This document shows positions 1 through 10,715 of a stretch of 10,715 nt of DNA, piece by piece; the stretch's first letter is position 1, and each line of letters begins with the position of its first letter. The notes under the pieces were generated by a model that did not search any database, was not told where the DNA came from, and was given only the letters and a program-made list of their open reading frames with translations. This stretch comes from a virus (Duplodnaviria > Heunggongvirae > Uroviricota > Caudoviricetes). The position numbers and the translations under genes were made by a program. The stretch spans positions 1 to 10,715 of the IMG/VR virus record IMGVR_UViG_2636415418_000006, one strand, 5' to 3'.

Positions 1-633
1 TTATATTAATTCGTATAATTTGGCGTAGTCGATAAGCTCTACAATTGAATGCAAACCTAGCTTGCCATAAATATTAGATTTATGCGCACTAACTGTTTTA
101 TTGCTAAGTAATAACTTATCGGCAATTTCTTTATTAGATAATCCGCTAACCAGATAACGTAATATGGTCACTTCACGATTAGATAGCACAGTGATCGTTG
201 AACTATTCGTACTACATTTATTGCTTTTTATATAGTTAAGCGTTTCGCTAGGAAAAAACGTGTATCCGGAGAGGATCATCTGAACGGCATGAAAAATATC
301 ATTCTGATCATTGCATTTACTGACAAAACCGTTAGCACCAGCTTGTATCGCTCTGCCAGCATAAAAGCATTCTGATTTCGATGATAAAAATAACACTTTC
401 ACTGTGCTCTGGATTTGTTTGATCCTTTTCAGGAAGGTAAAACCGTCTGTTCCGGGCAAGTCTATATCCATAATGATTAAATCAACAGGACGGGTTCGGA
501 GATAATCGATGGTTATGCGGTAATCATCCGTTTTCAGGACAATCTGCAATTCACTGTTTTTTTGCAACAGAACTTCAATAGACATTCTGATGATAGGATG
601 AGTATCCATAATGATCACCGACGTTGGTTTCAT
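1..633 (-). CDS. fimZ: LuxR/NarL-family two-component response regulator FimZ (receiver domain plus C-terminal HTH)
   Basis: The minus-strand ORF 1..696 translates to a protein that matches, from MKPTSVIIMDTHPIIR onward, my recollection of E. coli FimZ (210 aa). The ATG at 631-633 gives exactly 210 codons; the ORF-track start at 696 is probably an upstream in-frame ATG. The stop codon sits at 1-3. Confidence 0.88.
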   Translation of the reverse strand: MKPTSVIIMDTHPIIRMSIEVLLQKNSELQIVLKTDDYRITIDYLRTRPVDLIIMDIDLPGTDGFTFLKRIKQIQSTVKVLFLSSKSECFYAGRAIQAGANGFVSKCNDQNDIFHAVQMILSGYTFFPSETLNYIKSNKCSTNSSTITVLSNREVTILRYLVSGLSNKEIADKLLLSNKTVSAHKSNIYGKLGLHSIVELIDYAKLYELI

Positions 634-816
634 AGTTACCAGTCTCATAGGAGCGGACAATTTTCCGTTAGGGCGGTAAATTGTACTTTGATACATGAAA
701 ATACGGGTTTTCTTGATTCAGACGCGCAGCGGTGTGCGTTTGTTTGCCACTATAGCGAAATAAATCAGAAAATCAGACGCGGTCGTTCACTTGTTCAGCA
801 ACCAGATCAAAAGCCA

Positions 817-844
817 TTGACTCAGCAAGGGTTGACCGTATAAT
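817..844 (+). promoter_or_regulatory. Sigma70 promoter for argU tRNA: -35 TTGACT (817-822), 16-nt spacer, -10 TATAAT (839-844), GC-rich discriminator
   Basis: Both hexamers match consensus exactly, with a 16-bp spacer, and sit about 30 nt upstream of the mature tRNA 5' end. The GC-rich discriminator tcacgcg after the -10 is typical of stringently controlled tRNA promoters. Confidence 0.65.
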
Positions 845-875
845 TCACGCGATTACACCGCATTGCGGTATCAAC

Positions 876-952
876 GCGCCCTTAGCTCAGTTGGATAGAG
901 CAACGACCTTCTAAGTCGTGGGCCGCAGGTTCGAATCCTGCAGGGCGCGCCA
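876..952 (+). tRNA. argU: tRNA-Arg (anticodon UCU, 910-912), 77 nt with encoded CCA; attachment site of the prophage
   Basis: The sequence folds as a cloverleaf: acceptor stem GCGCCCT/AGGGCGC, D-arm, anticodon stem CGAC/GTCG with loop CTTCTAA, T-arm GCAGG-TTCGAAT-CCTGC, discriminator G and CCA at 950-952. It matches my recollection of E. coli argU, the known DLP12 integration site. Confidence 0.92.
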
Positions 953-967
953 TTACAATTCAATCAG

Positions 968-1360
968 TTACGCCTTCTTTATATCCTCCATAATTCCAGA
1001 GTGGGACATATTTGGGACATTATCACCAAAAATGTCGTCTATTTTCCTCGCATGCTCTGTCAAATGATTAGGCGCAAGGTGAGCATACCTACGAACCATT
1101 TCTATGGACTCCCATCCGCCCATTTCCTGAAGCACTGATAATGGGACGCCTGACTGAATCAGCCAGCTTGCCCAGGTGTGTCTGAGGTCATGGAAACGGA
1201 AATCTTCAATTCCTGCACGACGACAAGCTGATAGCCATGATGTCTTGCTGTCGATGCGCATCTTCCTGACCGCAGGCGTTGATGTTCCATCTGCTCGCTT
1301 AGCCGCCTTGGTATGTACAAACACCCATTTGTGATGCTTGCCTATTTGATCACGCAACAC
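968..1360 (-). pseudogene. intD: Tyrosine integrase, C-terminal catalytic fragment only (about 130 aa; N-terminal two thirds deleted)
   Basis: The ORF carries the integrase catalytic signatures HDLRHT (His-x-x-Arg box) and RRYAHL (catalytic Tyr region). It ends 16 nt from the tRNA 3' end, as expected for a tRNA-targeting integrase. A full-length integrase would be about 390 aa, but the 5'-truncated exo fragment sits directly upstream, so the N-terminus and xis are gone. The intD symbol is by position and analogy to K-12. Confidence 0.75.
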
Positions 1361-1397
1361 TTTACAGGCGGTACCCGGATATTATCGTGAGGATGCG

Positions 1398-1934
1398 TCA
1401 TCGCCATTGCTCCCCAAATACAAAACCAATTTCAGCCAGTGCCTCGTCCATTTTTTCGATGAACTCCGGCACCATCTCGTCAAAACTCGCCATGTACTTT
1501 TCATTCCGCTCAATCACGACATAATGCAGGCCTTCACGCTTCATGCGCGGGTCATAGTTGGCAAAGTACCAGGCATCTTTTCGCGTCACCCACATGCTGT
1601 ACTGCACCTGGGCCATGTAAGCCGATTTTATTGCCTCGAAACCACCGAGCCGGAATTTCATGAAATCCCGGGAGGTAAACGGGCATTTCAGTTCAAGGCC
1701 GTTGCCGTCACTGCATAAACCATCGGGAGAGCAGGCAGTGCGCATATTTTCGTCGCGATAGATGATCGGGGATTCAGTAACATTCACGCCGGAAGTGAAT
1801 TCAAACAGGGTTCTGGCGTCGTTCTCGTACTGTTTTCCCCAGGCCAGCGCCTTAGCATTAACTTCCGGAGCCACACCGGTGCAAACCTCAGCCAGCAGGG
1901 TGTGGAAGCCACGGTGCAATCTGGAATAACCCAC
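1398..1934 (-). pseudogene. exo: Lambda-type exonuclease (Exo/YqaJ family), 5'-truncated: the C-terminal ~170 aa are conserved and the native stop is retained
   Basis: From [37 protein letters not shown] to the terminal GFVFGEQWR the translation is near-identical to lambda Exo as I recall it. The first ~55 lambda codons are missing, and the ORF-track N-terminus MGYSRLHRG is non-homologous junction sequence. Homology begins near position 1907. Confidence 0.8.
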
Positions 1935-2254
1935 CGTACAGCAATATCAGGCCGTGGGTGGAAAAAGCCGCTGAGCAGTGCATACAACAGCGACAGACGG
2001 TAGTTATGCTTGTGCCAGAGGATATGTCAGTCGGATGGTTCAGCAAGGCTCTGGAGAGTGTCGACGAAGTTCGCATTATCACTGATGGACGGATTAATTT
2101 TATCGAACCATCGACAGGGCTGGAGAAGAAGGGAAACAGCAAAGGCTCCATGCTGCTGATTTGGCGACCGTTCATCAGTCCTCGACGGATGTTTACTACC
2201 GTATCCAAAGCGGCATTGATGGCGTTCGGGCAGGGCGTCAGGAGGGCGGCATGA
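1922..2254 (+). pseudogene. Phage DNA N6-adenine methyltransferase-like fragment (5'-truncated; begins at the NPPY catalytic motif)
   Basis: The frame containing ORF 1958..2254 stays open upstream to 1862 and encodes W-N-N-P-P-Y-S at 1922-1942, the [DNS]PP[YFW] motif IV of amino-methyltransferases. This is followed by VVMLVPEDMSVGWF and [11 protein letters not shown], which resemble the conserved C-terminal blocks of phage Dam-type enzymes. Sequence upstream of the motif is antisense exo, so the gene is cut at a deletion junction. The stop overlaps the ninE start in an ATGA arrangement (2251-2254). Confidence 0.4.
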
Positions 2255-2427
2255 GGCGACAGCGACGAAGTTTCACCGACATCATCTGCGAAAACTGCAA
2301 ATACCTTCCAACGAAACGCTCCAGAAATAAACGCAAGCCAATCCCAAAAGAATCTGACGTAAAAACCTTCAATTACACAGCTCACCTGTGGGATATCCGG
2401 TGGCTAAGATATCGTGCGAGGAAATGA
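2251..2427 (+). CDS. ninE: NinE family protein (58 aa)
   Basis: [58 protein letters not shown] matches lambda/DLP12 NinE as I recall it. A GGAGGG Shine-Dalgarno lies at 2241-2246. The ORF-track entry 2161..2427 is the same frame extended upstream. Confidence 0.85.
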
Positions 2428-2771
2428 CAATGGATTATTCACAGTTAAGTGATTTTGAAATTAACAGAATGGTAGGAGACATAATTTTTAAAGGCCTTTG
2501 GGCAAGTAAACCGGAAACATCAGGGAATAACACCAACAAATGGTATTACGGAAATGCTGATACAACTTTTGAGCCATTAAATCATTTGCCTGACTACTGC
2601 AATGATCCGAGCGCTTCATGGCCGATTATTGAGAAATACAGGATTTCTATCTTAGACCAGTTAACTGAATGGTGTGTGGATGCAAAAGGCGTAAGCCCAA
2701 TATTTGATACCAGACCTCTCCGCGCCGCCATGATTGTCTTTCTCCTGATGCAGGAGGCCAATAATGCTTAG
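2424..2771 (+). CDS. Hypothetical nin-region phage protein (115 aa; possibly DUF2591/NinX-like)
   Basis: The ATG at 2424 overlaps the ninE stop (ATGA) and is preceded by a GAGGAA Shine-Dalgarno at 2417-2422, which suggests translational coupling. It has an acidic, Trp/Tyr-rich globular sequence. The family assignment is a weak recollection only. Confidence 0.6.
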
Positions 2772-2981
2772 CCCATCTCAATCCCTTCAATACCTGAAAG
2801 GAAGCATAGAGCGGGCTTCAATGTGCACAGAGTGGATTCTATCTAGGTTTAGCGCATACAGAAGATTGCCGGTAAAGGGCATGCCAAGCAAGTCGATGCT
2901 GCATATGCAAAAGAATGCGCGTTGGAAGGTATGGCGAGAACGCAGGTTATCTGGCTGAAAGAGGGGGTAATTAAGGCGTGA
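2764..2981 (+). pseudogene. Chimeric remnant: ninF-like 5' end (about 20 codons) fused out of frame to the 3' end of a ybcO-like (DUF1364) gene
   Basis: Frame 1 starts [18 protein letters not shown], which matches the lambda NinF N-terminus as I recall it, and then diverges. Frame 3 from about 2853 encodes [38 protein letters not shown], which resembles the YbcO C-terminus and ends in a GTGA overlap with the rusA start. Neither part has a complete reading frame. Confidence 0.45.
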
Positions 2982-3340
2982 ATACTTACCACATCACACT
3001 ACCCTGGCCGCCGAGCAATAACCGCTACTACCGCCATAATCGAGGGCGCACGCACGTCAGCGCAGAGGGGCAGGCATACCGCGATAACGTCGCCCGAATC
3101 ATTAAAAACGCAATGCTGGATATCGGCCTGGCTATGCCTGTGAAAATCCGCATTGAGTGCCACATGCCGGATCGCCGTCGCCGTGACCTGGATAATCTGC
3201 AAAAAGCCGCTTTTGACGCACTCACTAAAGCAGGTTTCTGGCTGGATGATGCTCAGGTCGTTGATTACCGCGTTGTGAAGATGCCTGTTACCAAAGGTGG
3301 GAGGCTGGAACTGACCATCACCGAAATGGGGAATGAATGA
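2978..3340 (+). CDS. rusA: Holliday-junction resolvase RusA (120 aa), GTG start
   Basis: The translation [44 protein letters not shown]...[11 protein letters not shown] is essentially identical to E. coli RusA as I recall it, full length. Confidence 0.9.
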
Positions 3341-3477
3341 TGTTTGAGTTTAATATGGCAGAACTTCTTCGCCACCGCTGGGGGCGTCTGCGCTTATATC
3401 GTTCCCCCGGTTCTGTTTTGACCGATTACCGAATACTGAAGAATTACGCCAAAACCCTGACAGGAGCAGGAGTATGA
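3337..3477 (+). CDS. ylcG: Small protein YlcG (46 aa), absent from the supplied ORF track
   Basis: The ATG at 3337 overlaps the rusA stop (ATGA). The translation [46 protein letters not shown] matches my recollection of DLP12 YlcG, and the gene sits in the same place as in K-12, between rusA and quuD. Confidence 0.6.
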
Positions 3478-3562
3478 AGTCAGAGATAACAATCAACTAA
3501 TACTGTTTTGTTGATTTTTGCTTGTAATTGGCGTTCTGGCCTGATTTTTGTGGAGTAAGTTG

Positions 3563-3946
3563 ATGCGTGATATTCAGATGGTTCTTGAGCGTTGGGGAGC
3601 GTGGGCGGCTAATAATCATGAAGATGTGACCTGGTCGTCCATTGCCGCCGGTTTTAAGGGATTAATTACTTCAAAAGTAAAATCTCGCCCGCAATGTTGT
3701 GACGATGACGCGATGATTATTTGCGGGTGCATGGCCCGTCTGAAAAAGAACAACAGCGATTTGCACGATTTATTAGTAGATTATTATGTAGTCGGTATGA
3801 CATTCATGTCACTGGCAGGTAAGCATTGCTGCTCTGATGGTTATATCGGGAAAAGGTTACAGAAGGCTGAGGGCATAATTGAAGGGATGTTAATGGCATT
3901 AGATATCCGGTTAGAGATGGATATCGTTGTTAATAACTCTAATTAA
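3563..3946 (+). CDS. quuD: Late-gene antitermination protein Q homolog (127 aa)
   Basis: [34 protein letters not shown]...DIVVNNSN matches DLP12 QuuD as I recall it. A GGAG Shine-Dalgarno lies at 3552-3555. The ORF-track start at 3548 is an upstream TTG in the same frame. Confidence 0.88.
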
Positions 3947-3979
3947 TATGCCAGTTGTTTACTAAAAATTATTAAAAAT

Positions 3980-3997
3980 GGGGCGTTGCAACGCCCC
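3980..3997 (-). terminator. Perfect 18-bp palindrome GGGGCGTTGCAACGCCCC flanked by A/T runs; candidate terminator for nmpC (minus strand), possibly bidirectional
   Basis: The hairpin and its flanks are read directly from the sequence. On the minus strand the stem is followed by ATTTTTAAT. It lies about 140 nt downstream of the nmpC stop. Confidence 0.4.
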
Positions 3998-4085
3998 CAA
4001 AAATAAAGGGTAATATATAACAGAAGGTTTATATAGTTAGAAGCAAGGTTGTGCTCCTAAAGGAAGTGGCTTGAGGGAGCCACTT

Positions 4086-4125
4086 ATATGTTGGGGAGGC
4101 AAAGCCTCCCGCAACATATCTTTTT
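4086..4125 (+). terminator. Rho-independent terminator (about 15-bp stem with one bulge, then CTTTTT); candidate tR'-like terminator of the Q-dependent late leader
   Basis: ATATGTTGGGGAGGC-AAA-GCCTCCCGCAACATAT is followed by TTTTT at 4121-4125, about 180 nt downstream of the quuD stop. This matches the lambda Q / pR' / tR' layout. A second hairpin (AAGTGGCT/AGCCACTT) lies at 4064-4085. Confidence 0.55.
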
Positions 4126-4135
4126 CGTAATCAGA

Positions 4136-5233
4136 TTAGAACTGGTAAACCAGACCTACAGCAACGATGTCATCAGTGCTTACACCGAGTGCTTTAGTGA
4201 AGTCATTTTTGTCAAGCAGGTTGATTTTGTAATCAACGAAAGTAGACATATTTTTGTTGAAGTAATAGGTTGCACCTACATCAACATATTTGACTAAGTC
4301 CTGATCGCCCCATACTCCAAGATCCTTACCTTTAGATTGCAGGTAAGCAACGGACGGACGCAGACCGAAATCGAACTGATATTGTGCAACAGCTTCGAAG
4401 TTTTGAGCTTTATTAGCAACGAAGTGATCAGCAAATACAGTCATATTCTGGGTTTCAGAATAGGTAGTGGCCAGGTAAATGTTGTTAGCGTCATATTTCA
4501 GACCTGCGGCCCAAACTTCTGCATTTTTACCGGAAGCAAATACTTCAGGAAGAACTTTCCCTGCATTAACTTGAGTGTCGGTACGATCAGATTTCGCATA
4601 AGTTGCACCGATACCGAATCCTTCGTATTCATAGGTAGCAGAGAAACCGAAGCCATCACCGTTACCTTCGGTGTAGTTATCGAAATCGCTACGATCGTTT
4701 TTGCCTTGGTACTGAGCAGCAAAGTTCAGACCATCAACCAGACCAAAGAAGTCGTTGTTACGATAAGTTGCAACACCAGTGGTGCGACCAGTCATGAACA
4801 CATCTGTTTGGGTCCAGGTATCGCCACCGAATTCTGGCAGAACGTCAGTCCACGCACCGATGTCGTATGCTACACCGTAGTTACGGCCGTAATCGATGGA
4901 GCCGTAGTCACCGAATTTCAGGCCAGCGAAGGCAAGACGGGTTTTATCTTTGGAGGAACCTTGAGATTCAGCGCGGTTGCCTTTGAATTCATATTCCCAC
5001 TGACCGAAACCAGTCAGTTGATCGTTGATTTGGGTTTCACCTTTGAAGCCAAGACGGGCATAAGTAGTATCACCATCATCTGCATCATTAGAGGAGAAGT
5101 AGTGCTTAGCATTAACTTTCCCGTACAGATCCAGCTTGTTACTGTCTTTATTATAAATTTCAGCTGCCTGAGCAGACATCGCCATCAGTACTGATGCAGC
5201 TACAGCAGAAATTGCCACTGTTAATTTTTTCAT
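4136..5233 (-). CDS. nmpC: General outer-membrane porin of the OmpC/OmpF/NmpC family (365 aa, intact, with signal peptide)
   Basis: The signal peptide [23 protein letters not shown] is followed by AEIYNKD, and the protein ends in the typical porin C-terminal F. It is full length, unlike the IS5-disrupted K-12 nmpC, and sits antisense between Q and the lysis genes exactly as in DLP12. Confidence 0.85.
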
Positions 5234-5806
5234 CGTGAGCCCTTTTTTTTGAACTATTATTAAAAAATGATGTCACTGCGCGATAAATATTCATCTAATC
5301 AATATGATTATTTCAAGATGTAAGTTTTGGTTTCTCGTTTGATTTGTGAAGTAGATCTCTATTTTTATCTGAACTTTTTTCTATCGAATCCTATTCATGG
5401 CTCTTGGCTGAATAAAAATAAATCTATTAGCCAATTTATATTAACGGTTGTTATTTATAAGTGCTCTATGATTTGAAGGTTCAATTTAAATCGGCTAAAA
5501 ATAACACTGGGAATTATTTGTTGGTTATTTGTTGAGATTTGCTTATGTATTTGTAGTGGTGTTTTCAATACTCGGTAGCATTCTCGCAAATATCATTTAG
5601 TGGTTTACGTACGTAAAAAATTGGTTATGCTGTTAAGAGTGGTTACTTCGTCACACAGCTTAAACCCGCCGTCGAGTGGGTTTTTCCATTTTTTGAGTCT
5701 CGATATTAGCTGATAACCCAATACCTGAGTTATTCACTGACTCCGAGTCTGTTACGTTTCGTAGTATTCCCTCAATTTACACCCGCTTTGTCTGCGAGGT
5801 GGGGTT

Positions 5807-5905
5807 ATGAAATCCATGGATAAGTTAACAACGGGTGTCGCCTATGGCACCTCAGCAGGTAGTGCCGGGTATCTGCATCATCGTCTGCCTGTCATGGGCT
5901 GTTAA
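5807..5905 (+). pseudogene. essD: Class I holin (lambda S / EssD-like), N-terminal 22 codons only, then frameshifted into Rz sequence
   Basis: [22 protein letters not shown] matches the EssD/lambda S N-terminus as I recall it. After that the frame reads [10 protein letters not shown] and stops, because the DNA from about 5873 is Rz coding sequence in another frame. Confidence 0.7.
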
Positions 5906-6293
5906 TCATTACCGTGATAACGCAATCGCCTACAAAGAGCAGCGCGATAACAAGGCCAGTGAACTGGAGAAGGCGAACGCCACCATCGCTGACATGCGGA
6001 AGCGTCAACGTGATGTAGCAGAACTCGACGCAAGATACACAAAGGAGCTTGCTGATGCTAACGCGACTATCGAAAGTCTCCGTGCTGATGTTTCTGCTGG
6101 GCGTAAGCGCCTGCAAGTCGCCGCCACCTGTGCAAAGTCAACGACCGGAGCCAGCGGCATGGGCGATGGAGAAAGCCCAGGACTTACAGCAGATGCTGAA
6201 CTCAATTATTACCGTCTCCGAAGTGGAATCGACAAGATAACCGCGCAGGTTAACTACCTGCAGGAATACATCAGGACGCAATGCCTGAAATAA
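5844..6293 (+). CDS. rzpD: Inner-membrane spanin subunit Rz (i-spanin) with a chimeric N-terminus; transmembrane helix [11 protein letters not shown] retained
   Basis: From [26 protein letters not shown] to the C-terminal QCLK the protein aligns with lambda Rz as I recall it. The first ~12 codons (MAPQQVVPG) come from holin DNA read in the Rz frame. The start at ATG 5844 (or GTG 5835) is uncertain. Confidence 0.7.
6055..6240 (+). CDS. rzoD: Outer-membrane lipoprotein spanin Rz1 (o-spanin), embedded in the +1 frame of Rz
   Basis: An AAGGAG Shine-Dalgarno at 6041-6046 lies 8 nt before the ATG. The protein has a lipoprotein signal peptide with lipobox GVSAC, a proline-rich mature part ([14 protein letters not shown]) and lies wholly inside Rz. 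This is the classic embedded spanin arrangement. Confidence 0.75.
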
Positions 6294-6324
6294 TTTTTTT
6301 GCTAATCACAAAGTCCATTTAATG

Positions 6325-6349
6325 AGCCTCGCGATGCGGGGCTTTTTTT
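6325..6349 (+). terminator. Rho-independent terminator after Rz/Rz1 (8-bp stem AGCCTCGC/GCGGGGCT, loop GAT, seven T)
   Basis: Hairpin plus T-run are read directly, 32 nt downstream of the Rz stop. Confidence 0.6.
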
Positions 6350-6498
6350 ACATCTGAATTTCACAGCGCATCTCACGCGCATATTACATCACCCGAGCCT
6401 TTCAGAAAGTTGAGCCTGAGAACTGCCGTATATGGTGGCGACCATCTCGGGGCGGCTTTTCTGTGAGACAGGCTCACTTTCTAAAAGGTAAAGACGCT

Positions 6499-6987
6499 AT
6501 GAACCAATTAGAAGAAAAGCTTCAAAGAATGATTTCCTTATACAAGGAAGATAACTGCCAAAAAGTTCCTGAAAACATCGCAGAGTTAATGGAATTGGCA
6601 AGTGAATTTTCTGGCATGCTTAAGTCGTCAGGTGTTCGGTCAGCGTTCTTTGTTGAAATGCTGATGCACGGCGGACTTATGGCAACAATGAGACGTGTAA
6701 TGGAAGACCAGAGAAAAGAACCTCCTCAGGTATACGTTTTGTCATCGAAGAAAACTGGGCTAACCAAAATTGGGTATTCATCCAACATTCCACAACGCAT
6801 CAAATCGCTTGGCAACTCTGGACCAGACTGCTTGAAGCTTGAGTGCCTGATCCCTGGTGGAAGAGAAACTGAAAACATGCTTCATCGCAAATTTGCCGCA
6901 AAGAGAAAGCACGGTGAATGGTTCGCCCTGTCCAAGGATGACATTGAGGGATTGAAATCTGTAGCGATTACTTCTGATGGCTATTAA
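6499..6987 (+). CDS. T5orf172 (GIY-YIG-like) domain protein of 162 aa: helical N-terminal region of unknown function plus C-terminal T5orf172 domain; moron in the slot occupied by bor in lambda
   Basis: The C-terminal half (VYVLSSKKTGLTKIGYSSNIPQRIKSLGNSGPDCLKLECLIPGGRETENMLHRKFAAKRKHGEWFALS) follows the T5orf172/MUG113 pattern (hydrophobic-Y-V-L ... KIGyT ... R ... E ... LH ... GEWF). An AAGG Shine-Dalgarno precedes ATG 6499. The DNA is unrelated to lambda at this position. Confidence 0.7.
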   Translation: MNQLEEKLQRMISLYKEDNCQKVPENIAELMELASEFSGMLKSSGVRSAFFVEMLMHGGLMATMRRVMEDQRKEPPQVYVLSSKKTGLTKIGYSSNIPQRIKSLGNSGPDCLKLECLIPGGRETENMLHRKFAAKRKHGEWFALSKDDIEGLKSVAITSDGY

Positions 6988-7026
6988 TGCTTGTTTAGAG
7001 CAATTTTCATAACAACTCTTCATTAC

Positions 7027-7056
7027 AAAGCCCATCTACTGGTGGGCTTGATAATG
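7027..7056 (+). repeat. Hairpin AAGCCCA-(8 nt)-TGGGCTT followed by GATAATG; copy 1 of a repeated stem-loop motif
   Basis: Read directly from the sequence, 40 nt downstream of the T5orf172 stop. No T-run follows the stem. Confidence 0.4.
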
Positions 7057-7301
7057 AAACCGTGATTTACATCCCCACAATCCGGGTATGTAAAAGATAG
7101 TTCAGGCGAGAACGGATTTAACTAAATCTGTGCGCCACCAGTTAACGGCAGTACCACGAAACAACCCAAGCCAGTAAGTGGGGAAATAACACCGGCAGCC
7201 ACTGAAAGATGAACCTCCTGCCTTATGGCAAAAAAGATTCTTTGTGGTGGCGGACTGATGGAAAGACATCCTAATTTCAGCCAAACATTGAAGGAGTTGT
7301 T

Positions 7302-7373
7302 ATGTCAGCAGAAGGTTTCAATAACCCATCAAAATTCCGGGATGAGTGGGATAGCAGCGTAAAGAGTAAGTGA
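7302..7373 (+). CDS. Candidate small ORF (23 aa, MSAEGFNNPSKFRDEWDSSVKSK) with a strong Shine-Dalgarno
   Basis: A consensus AAGGAG at 7291-7296 lies 5 nt upstream of the ATG. There is no homology evidence, and the ORF is bracketed by the two repeated hairpins. Confidence 0.2.
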   Translation: MSAEGFNNPSKFRDEWDSSVKSK

Positions 7374-7383
7374 TGCCATCACA

Positions 7384-7417
7384 AAAGCCATTCCCTACAG
7401 AGTGGCTTTGATAATGG
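7384..7417 (+). repeat. Hairpin AAAGCCA-(12 nt)-TGGCTTT followed by GATAATGG; copy 2 of the repeated stem-loop motif
   Basis: It has the same architecture and the same 3' flank (GGCTT(T)GATAATG) as the hairpin at 7027-7056. Confidence 0.4.
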
Positions 7418-7665
7418 CTTATACCCTACACGGGATAACTTAACTGATATCCCTTTTAAAGGATAAAGGTATTCAAGCCTGACACATCATGCGCTGTATC
7501 GTCGCCGTATTCCAGTATTAACAGAGACCGTAGCCCGACGGGGAACTCCTTCTGCGCGAGTGTGCGGGAATAATCAAAAACGATGCACACCGGGGTTACC
7601 GGGTACACATATTTCATCATGCCAGCGAGTCCGGTTCTGGCACGGAAGAAACCGGACGTTATGAT

Positions 7666-8076
7666 TTAGTGCGGAAATATTTGTGTAGTGTTCTGAATGT
7701 TCTCAGTAAAGAGTAATGAATTATCAAAGGTATAGTAATACCTTTTGTTTTCGTGGATATTTGTAATCCATCTGAAAACCCCTGCTGTAGCAAGATTTTT
7801 CCTGTATTCGTAAAATGATAACTCTCCTGATTTGAATCCTTTTAATGTGGCTTCTATAAGGCATTTATTTTTTGAAAATCTTACATTTACAACCTTACCC
7901 TGTCCTTTTATTAAAACCGTATTATCGTTTTCAAGAACAAGATGAATATTCTCTGTGGCTAAATAGTAAATGTAATGTGAGACATTGTGACGTTTTAGTT
8001 CAGAATAAAACCAGTGATAGTTTAAATTATTTCGCACTTTATCGAATATTTGTTTAAAAATGGCAACCTGAGCCAT
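7666..8076 (-). CDS. ybcV: DUF1398-family prophage protein (YbcV-like, 136 aa)
   Basis: [17 protein letters not shown]...[24 protein letters not shown] resembles DLP12 YbcV and the equivalent lambda right-end ORF as I recall them. A GGAAGG Shine-Dalgarno precedes ATG 8076. The gene is AT-rich. Confidence 0.7.
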
Positions 8077-8133
8077 TGTAGTACCTTCCATGTGATATGA
8101 GGGTACCTAGTCTGCACGATTATCTAAATTGCT

Positions 8134-8367
8134 TCAATCTGGTCTGACCTGCTTTCTGAGCAATTCAGTAATGTCACTCTTTTCTTTGTTTGCTTCAGGC
8201 GAAACTCTTTTTTCTGAGCACAGTCTTCGGCGGCAGGCTTCAATGACCCAGGCTGAGAAGTTCCCAGACCCTTTTTGATCAAGAGCGATGTTAATTTGTT
8301 CAATCATTTGGTTAGGAAAGCGGATGTTGCGGGTTGTTGTTCTGCGGGTTCTGTTCTTCGTTGACAT
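8134..8367 (-). CDS. ylcI: Small ribbon-helix-helix-like DNA-binding protein (YlcI/DUF3950-like, 77 aa)
   Basis: The N-terminus MSTKNRTRRTTTRNIRFPNQMIEQINIALDQKGSGNFSAWVIEACRRRL has an Arg-rich beta-strand followed by helices, as in RHH proteins. Its position just upstream of cos matches DLP12 and lambda. Confidence 0.65.
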   Translation of the reverse strand: MSTKNRTRRTTTRNIRFPNQMIEQINIALDQKGSGNFSAWVIEACRRRLCSEKRVSPEANKEKSDITELLRKQVRPD

Positions 8368-8544
8368 GAGGTTGTCCCGTATTCAGTGTCGCTGATTTGT
8401 ATTGTCTGAAGTTGTTTTTACGTTAAGTTGATGCAGATCAATTAATATGATACCTGCGTCATAATTGATTATTTGACGTGGTTTGATGGCGTAGATGCAC
8501 GTTGTGACATGCAGATGATAATTATTATCATTTTGCGGGTCCTT

Positions 8545-8755
8545 TCCGGCGATCCGACAGGTTACGGGGCGGCGACCTCGCGGGTTTTTGCTATTTATGA
8601 AAATTTTCCGGTTTAAGGTGTTTCCGTTCTTCTTCGTCGTAACTTAATGTTTTTATTTAAAATACCCCCTGAAAAGAAAGGAAACGACAGGTGCTGAAAA
8701 CGAGCTTTTGGGCCTTTGTCGTTTCCTTTCTCTGTTTTTGGCCGTGGAATGAACA
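8545..8755 (+). other. Complete lambda-type cos site: cosQ side, cosN (12-nt cohesive end GGGCGGCGACCT at 8567-8578) and cosB up to the Nu1 start
   Basis: GATCCGACAGGTTACG|GGGCGGCGACCTCGCGGGTTTT...GAAAGGAAACGACAGGTGCTGAAA... is almost base-for-base the joined right and left ends of phage lambda as I recall them. Confidence 0.85.
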
Positions 8756-8944
8756 ATGGAAGTCAACAAAAAGCAGCTGGCTGACATTTTCGGTGCGAGT
8801 ATCCGTACCATTCAGAACTGGCAGGAACAGGGAATGCCCGTTCTGCGAGGCGGTGGCAAGGGTAATGAGGTGCTTTATGACTCTGCCGCCGTCATAAAAT
8901 GGTATGCCGAAATCTGGCGGATCCGGCGCGTGAGTTCACCATGA
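8756..8944 (+). pseudogene. nohD: Terminase small subunit Nu1, N-terminal 52 codons only (DNA-binding region), then junction
   Basis: MEVNKKQLADIFGASIRTIQNWQEQGMPVLRGGGKGNEVLYDSAAVIKWYAE is identical to lambda Nu1 residues 1-52. Homology stops at 8911, and the frame then reads IWRIRRVSSP and a stop. Confidence 0.85.
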
Positions 8945-9009
8945 TTCAGTCAGCACCGCTGATGCTGCTGGCTGACCCTGATGAGTTCGTGTCCGTACAA
9001 CTGGCGTAA
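8912..9009 (+). pseudogene. Major capsid protein E, last ~30 codons only
   Basis: A different frame ending at TAA 9007-9009 encodes ...REFTMIQSAPLMLLADPDEFVSVQLA, which matches the lambda gpE C-terminus as I recall it. It is joined directly to Nu1 codon 52, which implies deletion of Nu1 3', A, W, B, C, Nu3, D and most of E. Confidence 0.6.
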
Positions 9010-9011
9010 TC

Positions 9012-9036
9012 ATGGCCCTTCGGGGCCATTGTTTCT
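9012..9036 (+). terminator. Stable hairpin ATGGCCC-TTCG-GGGCCAT followed by a U-rich tract, between the E stop and FI
   Basis: A 7-bp GC-rich stem with a UUCG tetraloop, read directly. It is followed by TGTTTCTCTGTGG. Confidence 0.45.
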
Positions 9037-9050
9037 CTGTGGAGGAGTCC

Positions 9051-9449
9051 ATGACGAAAGATGAACTGATTGCCCGTCTCCGCTCGCTGGGTGAACAACT
9101 GAACCGTGATGTCAGCCTGACGGGGACGAAAGAAGAACTGGCGCTCCGTGTGGCAGAGCTGGAAGAGGAGCTTGATGACACGGATGAAACTGCCGGTCAG
9201 GACACCCCTCTCAGCCGGGAAAATGTGCTGACCGGACATGAAAATGAGGTGGGATCAGCGCAGCCGGATACCGTGATTCTGGATACGTCTGAACTGGTCA
9301 CGGTCGTGGCACTGGTGAAGCTGCATACTGATGCACTTCACGCCACGCGGGATGAACCTGTGGCATTTGTGCTGCCGGGAACGGCGTTTCGTGTCTCTGC
9401 CGGTGTGGCAGCCGAAATGACAGAGCGCGGCCTGGCCAGAATGCAATAA
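9051..9449 (+). CDS. FI: Lambda DNA-packaging/head-assembly protein FI (132 aa)
   Basis: MTKDELIARLRSLGEQLNRDVSLTGTKEELALRVAELEEELDDTDETAGQ...MTERGLARMQ is near-identical to lambda gpFI as I recall it. A GGAGG Shine-Dalgarno lies at 9041-9045. Confidence 0.88.
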   Translation: MTKDELIARLRSLGEQLNRDVSLTGTKEELALRVAELEEELDDTDETAGQDTPLSRENVLTGHENEVGSAQPDTVILDTSELVTVVALVKLHTDALHATRDEPVAFVLPGTAFRVSAGVAAEMTERGLARMQ

Positions 9450-9460
9450 CGGGAGGCGCT

Positions 9461-9814
9461 GTGGCTGATTTCGATAACCTGTTCGATGCTGCCATTGCCT
9501 GCGCCGATGAAACGATACGCGGGTACATGGGAACGTCAGCCACCATGACATCCGGTGAGCAGTCCGGTGCTGTGATACGTGGTGTTTTTGATGACCCTGA
9601 AAATATCAGCTATGCCGGACAGGGCGTGCGCGTTGAAGGCTCCAGCCCGTCCCTGTTTGTCCGGACTGATGATGTGCGGCAGCTGCGGCGCGGCGACACG
9701 CTGACCATCGGTGAGGAAAACTTCTGGATAGACCGGATTTCGCCGGATGATGGCGGAAGCTGTCATCTCTGGCTTGGGCGGGGCGTACCGCCTGCCGTTA
9801 ACCGTCGCCGCTGA
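9461..9814 (+). CDS. FII: Lambda head-tail joining protein FII (117 aa), GTG start
   Basis: MADFDNLFDAAIACADETIRGYMGTSATMTSGEQSGAVIRGVF...GRGVPPAVNRRR is near-identical to lambda gpFII as I recall it. A GGGAGG Shine-Dalgarno lies at 9451-9456. Confidence 0.88.
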   Translation: MADFDNLFDAAIACADETIRGYMGTSATMTSGEQSGAVIRGVFDDPENISYAGQGVRVEGSSPSLFVRTDDVRQLRRGDTLTIGEENFWIDRISPDDGGSCHLWLGRGVPPAVNRRR

Positions 9815-10715
9815 AAGGGGGATGTATGGCCATAAAAGGTCTTGAGCAGGCCGTTGAAAACCTCAGCCGTATCAGCAGAACGGCGGTGCCCGGTGCCGCC
9901 GCAATGGCCATTATCCTCGGTGGTTTGTTCTCCTTGTCGCAGAGCGCCGTGTCCTCACCGGCTTCCGGGAAATCCACATCTTTTTTGATTTCGCCACGCC
10001 CGCCCACCATGGTGGCAAACTCCATTAATACCGGACCGGCGGGAAACAGAAGCGATGCGCCGGCGCTGACGAGATCCATAAAACCGGCATTGCTTTCCGT
10101 CAGGGTGATAACAGCGTTCCCCCAGGCCTTCGCCAGTGGTACTGCTTTTTCCGCTGCCGATTCAAGCAGGTCAGTGGCAATATCACCCCATGAGGGTTCC
10201 CCCTGTGGGATTTCAGGTATTGCTCCAGGTGGGGGAGGAGGGGGAAGGGTGACGGCGGCCCTTGCAGCGGGCTTTCCGTTAATGTTTACATTTTCAGAAC
10301 CGGTATTGATGGCGCCGTCCGTGTCACAAAAGCTGTTTATCCATGATTCAAGCTGGTTCTGTTTCTCCTCCACATAATCACTCGCCTTATAGCTGGCATA
10401 CATCAGCGCAGGCACCAGAACCAGCGCATAAGGGCCGGTGGCGCAGGCGGCCATAATCAGGCAACCTTCTGCGATGGTCACTATCGCCCCCAGCACGGCC
10501 CCTGCCAGTGCCCCCAGAAAACTTTTATGCTGAATTTCATCGCCCAGCCTGGCGGCAGGTGGGCCGGACTTCTTTGCTGCCAGCATCTGTGCAATGGCTT
10601 TGTCGTTGGCTGCCCGTTTCATCTGGCTGGCGACCATCGCCTGCTGTGACAGCATTCGCATTGCCAGCGTACCGCCTGCGGTCGCTCCCTGTGGCCCGCC
10701 TGGTCCTTCACTCAT
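9798..10715 (-). CDS. Hypothetical membrane protein with a prePAAR-like motif (AARLGDEIQH), a two-helix hydrophobic hairpin, a PAAR-like motif (NVNINGKPAAR) and a poly-proline linker; candidate T6SS-type effector N-terminal module whose 3' end runs into antisense lambda DNA
   Basis: The long minus-strand ORF is GC-rich with E. coli-like codon usage. Residues 51-60 fit AARxxDxxxH, residues about 66-108 are hydrophobic (FLGALAGAVLGAIVTIAEGCLIMAACATGPYALVLVPALMY), and residues about 141-149 are GSENVNINGKPAAR followed by PPPPPP. The last ~40 codons (position 9912 and below) are antisense to lambda Z and FII, so the native C-terminus is missing. The start may be an internal ATG (10584-10586, MLAAKKSGPPAAR...). 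Confidence 0.5.
   Translation of the reverse strand: MSEGPGGPQGATAGGTLAMRMLSQQAMVASQMKRAANDKAIAQMLAAKKSGPPAARLGDEIQHKSFLGALAGAVLGAIVTIAEGCLIMAACATGPYALVLVPALMYASYKASDYVEEKQNQLESWINSFCDTDGAINTGSENVNINGKPAARAAVTLPPPPPPGAIPEIPQGEPSWGDIATDLLESAAEKAVPLAKAWGNAVITLTESNAGFMDLVSAGASLLFPAGPVLMEFATMVGGRGEIKKDVDFPEAGEDTALCDKENKPPRIMAIAAAPGTAVLLIRLRFSTACSRPFMAIHPPFSGDG
9826..9912 (+). pseudogene. Tail protein Z, first 29 codons only
   Basis: MAIKGLEQAVENLSRISRTAVPGAAAMAI matches the lambda gpZ N-terminus, after which the frame diverges into sequence that is antisense to the minus-strand gene. The remaining ~150 aa of the ORF-track entry 9826..10377 are not Z. Confidence 0.75.

Follow-up and report, generated by a model that had tools for sequence, protein, structure and literature searches.

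A lambdoid prophage remnant of the DLP12 family at argU of Escherichia coli: its junctions, the order of its deletions and the genes that remain

The 10,715-nucleotide stretch of DNA analyzed here (positions 1 to 10,715 of the IMG/VR virus record IMGVR_UViG_2636415418_000006; hereafter, the window) carries, next to the argU tRNA gene of Escherichia coli, a row of lambda-like phage genes in which whole reading frames alternate with fragments that abut one another abruptly. The question raised by such a locus is how it came about: were large pieces deleted from a once complete prophage and, if so, at which bases and in what order; was anything spared for the benefit of the host; or are the fragments simply the genes of some other phage? 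An earlier reading of the sequence alone (the original prediction) favored a prophage that had been reduced by at least six deletions between positions 968 and 9912, whilst selected modules stayed intact. Our comparisons indicate that the interval 955-9913 is very probably the remnant (8,955 bp, or 20%) of a 45.3-kb lambda-like prophage of the DLP12 family, integrated at argU and reduced by stepwise RecA-independent deletions.

When the whole window was compared by megablast with 5,426 complete E. coli genomes, three held it in full length and eight held at least 80% of it in one place. The best match, strain W21, has a single mismatch at position 923, inside argU (C versus T between the window and W21, with K-12 agreeing with the window). 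The window corresponds to the fimZ-argU region, and the gene order in W21 is fimZ, tRNA-Arg (argU), phage genes and a partial Rhs gene, followed beyond the window by a DcrB-related gene, vgrG and cusS. The PGAP annotation of W21 lists int, exo, the methyltransferase gene, DUF1364/ybcO, essD, Nu1, E, Z and Rhs as partial pseudogenes. From fimZ through argU to the int fragment, the window is 99.5% identical to K-12. The annotated argU gene occupies 876-954 on the plus strand and its 3′ 50 bp (905-954) form the attL copy of the attachment repeat, identical to that of K-12. In prophages of the DLP12 type, a segment of ~47-50 bp from the 3′ end of argU is duplicated at the two ends. A second copy of the repeat is present in K-12, Res13 and EM18-18-42 (see below), and there is a single copy in W21.

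We aligned the window at the nucleotide level with four references: lambda (NC_001416), the DLP12 region of K-12, the less-deleted sister strain Res13-Lact-PEB20-37-A (Res13), and the near-complete prophage at argU of strain EM18-18-42 (NZ_CP063473), whose coordinates are given as REF. The element is a lambdoid prophage that has suffered multiple deletions. The EM18-18-42 prophage measures 45,336 bp from attL to attR and contains int, exo-bet-gam, N, repressor, cro, cII, O, P, the nin region, Q, porin, lysis genes, cos and all head and tail genes; it is defective only in that int is interrupted by a stop codon and that quuD and the portal gene are frameshifted. Five colinear blocks of the window, which sum to the 8,955 bp given above, match this prophage at 99.7-100% identity in four blocks and at 96% in the fifth (E′-Z′), and every fragment in the window falls within a gene that is full-length in EM18-18-42.

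Breakpoints of the six junctions

Breakpoints were set base by base against both parental sequences, and for each junction a 200-bp query with the joint at its center was run against the 5,426 genomes. All six junctions named in the original prediction exist, within a few bases of where it had placed them; we number them J1 to J6 from left to right. J1 joins int to the 3′ flank of exo by a crossover at TA (1372-1373): int is matched without error up to 1373, and the exo flank from 1372 onward. Compared with EM18-18-42, 2,210 bp are missing, comprising the 5′ part of int, xis and the genes between int and exo, and 19 genomes carry the junction. At J2 (1906-1908) exo is joined to the methyltransferase gene, dam, at AAG, with a loss of 4,521 bp relative to Res13, or 8,161 bp relative to EM18-18-42, and four genomes share it. 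J4, a TA crossover at 5870-5871, removed 681 bp, namely the remainder of essD, the whole of rrrD (endolysin) and 35 nt from the start of Rz; it is carried by eight genomes, each as one uninterrupted 100% match.

J5 lacks microhomology. Nu1 is exact to 8912 and E is exact from 8920, and between them lies a 7-nt filler, TCTGGCG (8913-8919), in place of 6,722 lost bp; 11 genomes have the same junction. The filler together with its flanking bases (ATCTGGCGGA, window 8912-8921) is a 10-nt match to gene E (lambda 6433-6442), approximately 630 nt upstream of the right breakpoint and within the deleted stretch, which suggests that the template was switched during the deletion. J6, found in three genomes, is again a TA crossover (9912-9913) and cuts Z after 29.3 codons, in keeping with the 29 codons first noted. 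It had been regarded as a cut within the prophage; the comparison with Res13 instead reveals a deletion of 18,164 bp (32,994 bp relative to EM18-18-42) that runs past attR into host genes, and that took the rest of Z, U, the tail fibre gene, ybcY, appY, ompT, attR, envY, ybcH, nfrA, nfrB and the 3′ part of a PAAR-Rhs gene.

Since the same junctions occur in three to 19 independent complete genomes from several continents, they are not assembly artifacts. A search for microhomology at the breakpoints, as the original prediction had proposed, yielded 0-3 bp, with J5 having none but the filler. Longer microhomologies of 9 bp at J2 and 14 bp at J6, suggested by overlapping BLAST matches, shrank upon base-by-base inspection to 3 and 2 bp within patchy similarity. 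We considered an insertion sequence (IS)-mediated origin of the five scars J1, J2, J4, J5 and J6 and rejected it, as no IS sequence or target duplication is left at any of them. Chi sites were absent from the window and from the first 7 kb of the reference.

J3 has a different origin. In this region (2764-2981, plus strand), approximately 21 codons of ninF, with NinF similarity stopping at ~2826, are followed by ~50 unassigned nt and then, from ~2877, by the last ~30 codons of ybcO, whose Pfam match (2877-2969) covers profile positions 62-92 of 92. Twenty-seven phage records, each of 45-50 kb (ev099, mEp332, 1H12, Lambda_2E9 and others), contain a 251-bp stretch with this joint at 97-99% identity, and the joint is also present in the near-complete prophage of EM18-18-42. 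For that reason the ninF/ybcO fusion, which had been counted among the deletions, is not a step of the reduction; it was inherited from the phage lineage, outside the decay of this prophage.

The case of J3 gives some substance to the idea that all of the fragments are full-length genes of another lambdoid phage, or that the joints arose by exchange between phages rather than by deletion in the chromosome, and the Rz gene, only 81-82% identical to that of either K-12 or lambda, points to exchange of modules within the family. However, the flanks of J1, J2, J4, J5 and J6 are 96-100% identical to one continuous prophage or sister strain in which the genes are whole, and the coverage of the Pfam domains of int′, dam′ and ybcO′ is partial. 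This idea is refuted for these five junctions and holds for J3 alone; as an explanation of the whole locus, we regard it as exceedingly improbable. The five junctions are deletion scars acquired in the chromosome.

The locus is an ordinary, heavily deleted lambdoid remnant, and represents a further deletion variant of a very well known type of element. DLP12, the cryptic lambdoid prophage of K-12 (Lindsey et al., 1989, as cited in PMC6379469), is found at argU in 74% of 638 strains (PMC6379469). It shares with the window the integration site and the intD-type integrase (1 difference in 405 nt), the colinear genes ybcO-rusA-ylcG-quuD-nmpC-essD (window 2892-5871, 98.2-98.5% identical apart from the IS5 of K-12) and the cos-nohD region (96.6%). 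Both elements are defective through internal deletions, and both adjoin appY-ompT in less-deleted relatives. Nevertheless, no breakpoint of DLP12, whose scars are xisD′/exoD′, exoD′/peaD and aaaD′/tfaD, equals one in the window. K-12 retains the whole of intD, essD-rrrD-rzpD, nohD and attR, and has emrE-ybcK-ybcLM, IS3 and IS5, whereas the window lacks attR and retains exo′, dam′, ninX, a GIY-YIG gene (in place of bor), E′-FI-FII-Z′ and an intact nmpC. The Rz and ybcV regions of the two are only 81-83% identical.

The phages ev099, mEp332, 1H12 and Lambda_2E9 have, in addition to the ninF′/ybcO′ joint, the same order of methyltransferase, ninE, ninX, rusA, Q, porin, lysis genes and cos. They and the EM18-18-42 prophage differ from the window in their size of 45-50 kb and in having full recombination, immunity, replication, lysis, head and tail modules, of which the window represents 20%. 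Lambda itself has the same gene order, with nucleotide identities of 97.2% for exo′, 95% for ninE, 94-97% for cos/Nu1′ and 98.0% for E′-FI-FII-Z′, but its attB lies between gal and bio, it has another integrase and another Q, and it lacks nmpC, rusA, ninX and the GIY-YIG gene.

Order of the deletions

The relative age of the scars can be read, in part, from strains that carry only some of them. Res13, 300081 and ES2 have J1, J4 and J5, with exo-bet-gam-kil-cIII and Z-U still present and thus undeleted at J2 and J6, while BKQ37E has J2 together with an intact Z-U and a retained tail fibre gene. Based on these intermediates, J1, J4 and J5 preceded J2, and J2 preceded J6. The comparison across E. 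coli strains that had been suggested for this purpose was informative for the later steps, though not for the order among J1, J4 and J5. Res13 also shows a 4,268-bp deletion that joins N′ to ninB and an IS1 insertion, both inside the region later lost through J2. Hence, J2 was not the single event that removed bet/gam, the immunity region and the replication genes, as initially thought; it took the N′/ninB scar and IS1 along with bet, gam, kil, cIII and ninB.

The history begins with an ancestor that already had the ninF′/ybcO′ fusion, like the free phages of its lineage. This prophage first lost 2.2 kb between int and the exo flank, 0.68 kb between the holin gene and Rz, 6.7 kb between Nu1 and E (leaving the templated filler) and 4.3 kb between N and ninB, and acquired the IS1. 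In the second step, a 4.5-kb deletion from exo to the methyltransferase gene wiped out both the N/ninB scar and IS1, and in the third, a final 18-kb deletion fused Z to the Rhs gene beyond the prophage. The losses are best seen as separate RecA-independent (illegitimate) deletions between sites with only 0-3 bp in common, each probably neutral or mildly advantageous to the host.

Several observations weigh against this reconstruction, or at least against parts of it. That the losses were neutral is something we infer. J1, J4 and J5 cannot be placed in order relative to one another, and the missing scars of some strains stem from IS1-adjacent deletions. Thus, PCN061 and strain 127 (two of the three inspected strains with J1 and no J5) have lost the J5 region in this way, as 13P484A (one of three strains with J5 and no J4) has lost the J4 region. 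A full ordering from the nested genome counts (19 > 11 > 8 > 4 > 3), which we had considered, is unsafe for J1, J5 and J4 in view of these three strains. Furthermore, lambda (98%) is a better match for E′-Z′ than EM18-18-42 (96%) is; our reference therefore differs there from the true parent, and recombination with other lambdoid phages may have contributed. Finally, the right endpoint of J1 is that of the K-12 xisD′/exo junction, and its left endpoint is that of the int′/bet junction of CFSAN061772, a coincidence that purely random breakage does not predict.

The remnant is a classic example of how a prophage decays, at a locus that is itself familiar. Its merit is that a near-complete parent, intermediates and the end state are all available in complete genomes, so that each deletion can be sized and, in part, ordered. 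J6 also illustrates that the decay of a prophage can carry off neighboring host genes, in this case ompT, appY, envY, the phage-N4 receptor genes nfrA/nfrB and most of an effector of the type VI secretion system (T6SS).

In the relatives, many of the larger losses are bordered by IS1 and ISEc52 (comparison sequences L005, at 16547-17314, L009, L016, L018 and L019), and some deletions that start at IS1 extend to cusS. Decay here has proceeded by a second and separate route as well, through deletions adjacent to IS elements. Stop codons or frameshifts are already present in nfrA and/or nfrB of four other strains that we examined (L010, L012, L013 and L015), which suggests repeated natural loss of these genes.

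Crossovers at TA and reuse of endpoints

Three of the five deletion scars (J1, J4 and J6) cross over exactly at TA. To put this in context, we assembled deletion junctions from six argU strains and from the Rac prophage of K-12, an ad hoc sample in which not every event is independent. Ten of its 21 IS-free junctions are exactly TA. Among the 14 two-base microhomologies the share is ten, against 2.6% expected from prophage composition (p = 1.3e-13), and the excess persists when possibly dependent events are dropped (p = 9e-11). Besides the three in the window, TA junctions are found at xisD′/exo flank and exoD′/P of K-12, int′/bet and essD′/stf of CFSAN061772, hyp/rusA-upstream of 14EC033, and ydaW/rzpR of K-12 Rac; the N′/ninB junction of Res13 becomes TA only after a 1-nt shift of the right parent by eye, the automated call having returned a 4-nt filler. 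TA is thereby seen in five of the six argU strains measured and in Rac of K-12. The positions in the comparison sequences are 2225-2226, 2529-2530 and 17812-17814 in L006 (K-12), 9101-9102 and 13789-13790 in L011 (CFSAN061772), 18072-18073 in L013 and 14701-14702 in L020.

Related motifs occur at aaaD′/tfaD of K-12, where the microhomology is TAT, and at nfrB/Rhs of Res13, where it is GGTAGC. As a control outside the argU family, K-12 Rac was compared with a fuller Rac-type prophage, and its three junctions were CGG-TA, AA and CA. The deletions of PK8217 (Rac) and JNE170426 (argU) are IS-bounded and added no junctions. Not all junctions follow the pattern: J2 has AAG, J5 has its filler, and the three junctions of MRE162 are AA, CTG and CTGA.

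The bases around TA are also biased: 12 of 16 sites have G at -2 (p = 2.5e-4) and 11 of 16 have it at +4. Most sites conform to GG(T)TA, or to TA(A)CC when the other strand is read. At every TA junction the preceding base comes from the left parent and the following base from the right parent, which fits a 2-nt stagger and not the 4-nt stagger of DNA gyrase. Moreover, two endpoints have been used twice. REF 3312, in the exo flank, is common to K-12 and W21, and REF 1103, in int, is common to W21 and CFSAN061772; the three junctions involved are window 1372-1373, K-12 (L006) 2225-2226 and CFSAN061772 (L011) 9101-9102.

One explanation for these features would be an activity that cleaves DNA at TA with a 2-nt stagger and rejoins the ends, that prefers GG(T)TA / TA(A)CC, and whose hybrid sites stay active and can be used again. 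It would account for the exact crossovers of J1, J4 and J6, for the excess of TA over expectation, for the G bias at both flanking positions, and for the repeated use of REF 3312 and REF 1103. On the other hand, the sample is what it is, ad hoc and partly dependent; J2, J5 and the MRE162 junctions do not fit; and the sequences at two of the sites involved in reuse, TACCCGGA and TAACCGGA, match at seven of eight positions, a similarity through which ordinary slipped mispairing could account for one case of reuse. The enzymes that we considered as candidates also fail. According to one paper (PMC13284261), a GTAC/TA step lies at the center of a gyrase-bound segment, but with its 4-nt stagger, gyrase would place the breakpoints one base to either side of those observed; the Topo-Seq paper offered no usable gyrase core motif. 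For the Rpn (YhgA-like) nucleases, no sequence specificity is reported (PMC5350276). Integrase acting at pseudo-att sites was likewise set aside: similarity to the end of the att repeat (GCGCC..TA, GCCATTA) is seen at the exo-flank and Z sites and is not shared by their partner sites, and we treat it as a lead only. Literature searches on TA-biased deletion junctions returned nothing relevant, and no enzyme or paper that accounts for the pattern.

On balance, we hold such an activity to be a possibility worth naming, with the odds somewhat against it. The broader proposition, that about half of the IS-free deletions in E. coli lambdoid remnants come from an undescribed or unrecognised break-and-rejoin activity at TA, the hybrid products of which stay substrates and so explain the shared int 1103 and exo-flank 3312 endpoints, is more doubtful still. 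If true, prophage decay would be partly sequence-directed rather than random. The TA pattern is the only lead here that may carry wider weight: should a systematic survey confirm both the strong excess of TA (mostly GGTA) and the reuse of endpoints, some illegitimate deletions in E. coli would seem to arise by a specific mechanism.

Genes and fragments that remain

As annotated, the window is devoid of intact genes for int, xis, repressor, O/P, large terminase, portal, capsid, tail, holin and endolysin, and it also lacks attR. Instead of the complete modules between two att sites that characterize an inducible lambdoid prophage, there are five blocks, amounting to 8,955 of 45,336 bp. With integrase, repressor, replication, terminase, holin and endolysin genes and attR all missing, the remnant is immobile and non-lytic, unable to excise, replicate, package or lyse, just as the original prediction had it. 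The spanin genes are without function, as holin and endolysin are absent.

The same prediction had implied that the surviving modules were selected, and here our results do not bear it out. Under this idea, the retained genes (ninE, rusA, ylcG, quuD, nmpC, FI, FII and others) would be under purifying selection for their benefit to the host, and the deletions would have trimmed the useless or harmful parts. In its favor, all 11 uninterrupted genes have clean frames, nmpC is whole here and IS5-disrupted in K-12, each deletion takes away functions that are dangerous upon induction, such as lysis and replication, and comparison with K-12 or lambda gives low ratios of nonsynonymous to synonymous substitution rates (dN/dS) for rusA (0.10) and FII (0.21), with no nonsynonymous change in quuD. 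However, over the ~8.9 kb compared, the window differs from EM18-18-42 at 12 positions and from Res13 at seven; at such small distances (7-12 differences), neutral evolution would be expected to leave the frames intact, because so few substitutions since the deletions leave little room for chance inactivation. The comparison of dN/dS between intact genes and fragments, one of the checks originally proposed, showed no contrast: the dead exo′ has the same ratio as rusA (0.10), and the Z′ stub has 0.31. Because the divergence measured in this way predates the decay, the ratios are uninformative on selection and reflect evolution within working phages. Close relatives have, in addition, lost some of these very genes, through a frameshift in quuD, a nonsense mutation in ylcI (W40*), ISEc52 in the GIY-YIG gene, or an IS1-adjacent deletion of the whole block, and FI, FII and Rz1 are useless without heads, tails or holin. 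We therefore consider retention for host benefit improbable; the surviving genes are probably intact through the recency of the decay rather than through protection by selection.

With regard to individual features, int′ (968-1373, minus strand) sits directly beside argU, on the opposite strand, and consists of the 3′ 406 nt of an intD-type integrase gene (135 C-terminal codons of 387), covering only positions 75-171 of 172 in the Pfam Phage_integrase profile. The exo′ fragment (1374-1908, minus strand) comprises 24 nt of 3′ flank and the 3′ 511 nt (170 of 226 codons) of a lambda-type exonuclease gene; its 97.2% identity to lambda is over 31322-31858, and it is 100% identical to the EM18-18-42 prophage. 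It is followed on the plus strand by dam′ (1907-2254), encoding the C-terminal 115 aa of a phage N6-adenine methyltransferase (Pfam Dam, 60-167 of 169), the gene for which is full-length (528 nt) in Res13 and EM18-18-42.

Beyond this point, ninE (2251-2427), ninX (2430-2771) and, past J3, rusA, ylcG and quuD (2978-3946) are all intact on the plus strand; the last three have the lengths of the K-12 genes, no internal stops and 98.2% identity to K-12 DLP12. The nmpC porin gene (4136-5233, minus strand) encodes 365 aa. Full-length frames had thus been correctly assigned to ninE, rusA, ylcG, quuD and nmpC, as well as to FI and FII (below), but not to Rz. Of the holin gene, the first 21 codons remain as essD′ (5807-5871, plus strand), and Rz′ (5872-6293, plus strand) has lost its first 12 codons, which are replaced by out-of-frame essD sequence. 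This truncation is seen by alignment with EM18-18-42 and with lambda Rz; the lost codons are part of the membrane anchor, and the Pfam Rz domain (Phage_lysis) is complete. The 149-aa "lysis protein" of the PGAP annotation begins at an ATG (5844) that lies within essD′ and in a different frame. An Rz1-like lipoprotein frame (6055-6240, plus strand) is embedded in Rz′.

Downstream lie an intact GIY-YIG/T5orf172 (MUG113) gene (6499-6987, plus strand) and, on the minus strand, intact ybcV/DUF1398 (7666-8076) and ylcI/DUF3950 (8134-8367). The GIY-YIG gene takes the place of the bor gene of lambda and K-12 DLP12; it is also found in EM18-18-42, and the copy disrupted by ISEc52 is that of BKQ37E. The joined cos region has been kept, with cosN (GGGCGGCGACCT) at 8567-8578 on the plus strand; window 8205-8564 matches lambda 48141-48500, and 8567-8912 matches lambda 1-347. 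Nu1′ (8756-8912, plus strand) comprises the first 52 codons of the small terminase subunit and is identical to lambda nu1 over 153 nt. With the complete joined cos (8555-8590) and these 52 codons in place, a superinfecting lambdoid phage might in principle be able to cut the chromosome at this site with its terminase.

The last block of prophage genes, all on the plus strand, is made up of the final 90 nt of E (from 8920), intact FI (9051-9449), intact FII (9461-9814) and the 29 codons of Z′ (9826-9913); the 98.0% identity of this block (8920-9913) is to lambda 7071-8076. On the far side of J6, Rhs′ (9912-10715, minus strand) is host DNA and not prophage: it holds the N-terminal 268 codons, with prePAAR and PAAR motifs, of a T6SS Rhs effector gene. 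Its frame (9798-10715, minus strand) runs over J6 and through ~38 antisense codons of Z′/FII before reaching a stop, and a PAAR protein devoid of its toxin might still be produced beside vgrG.

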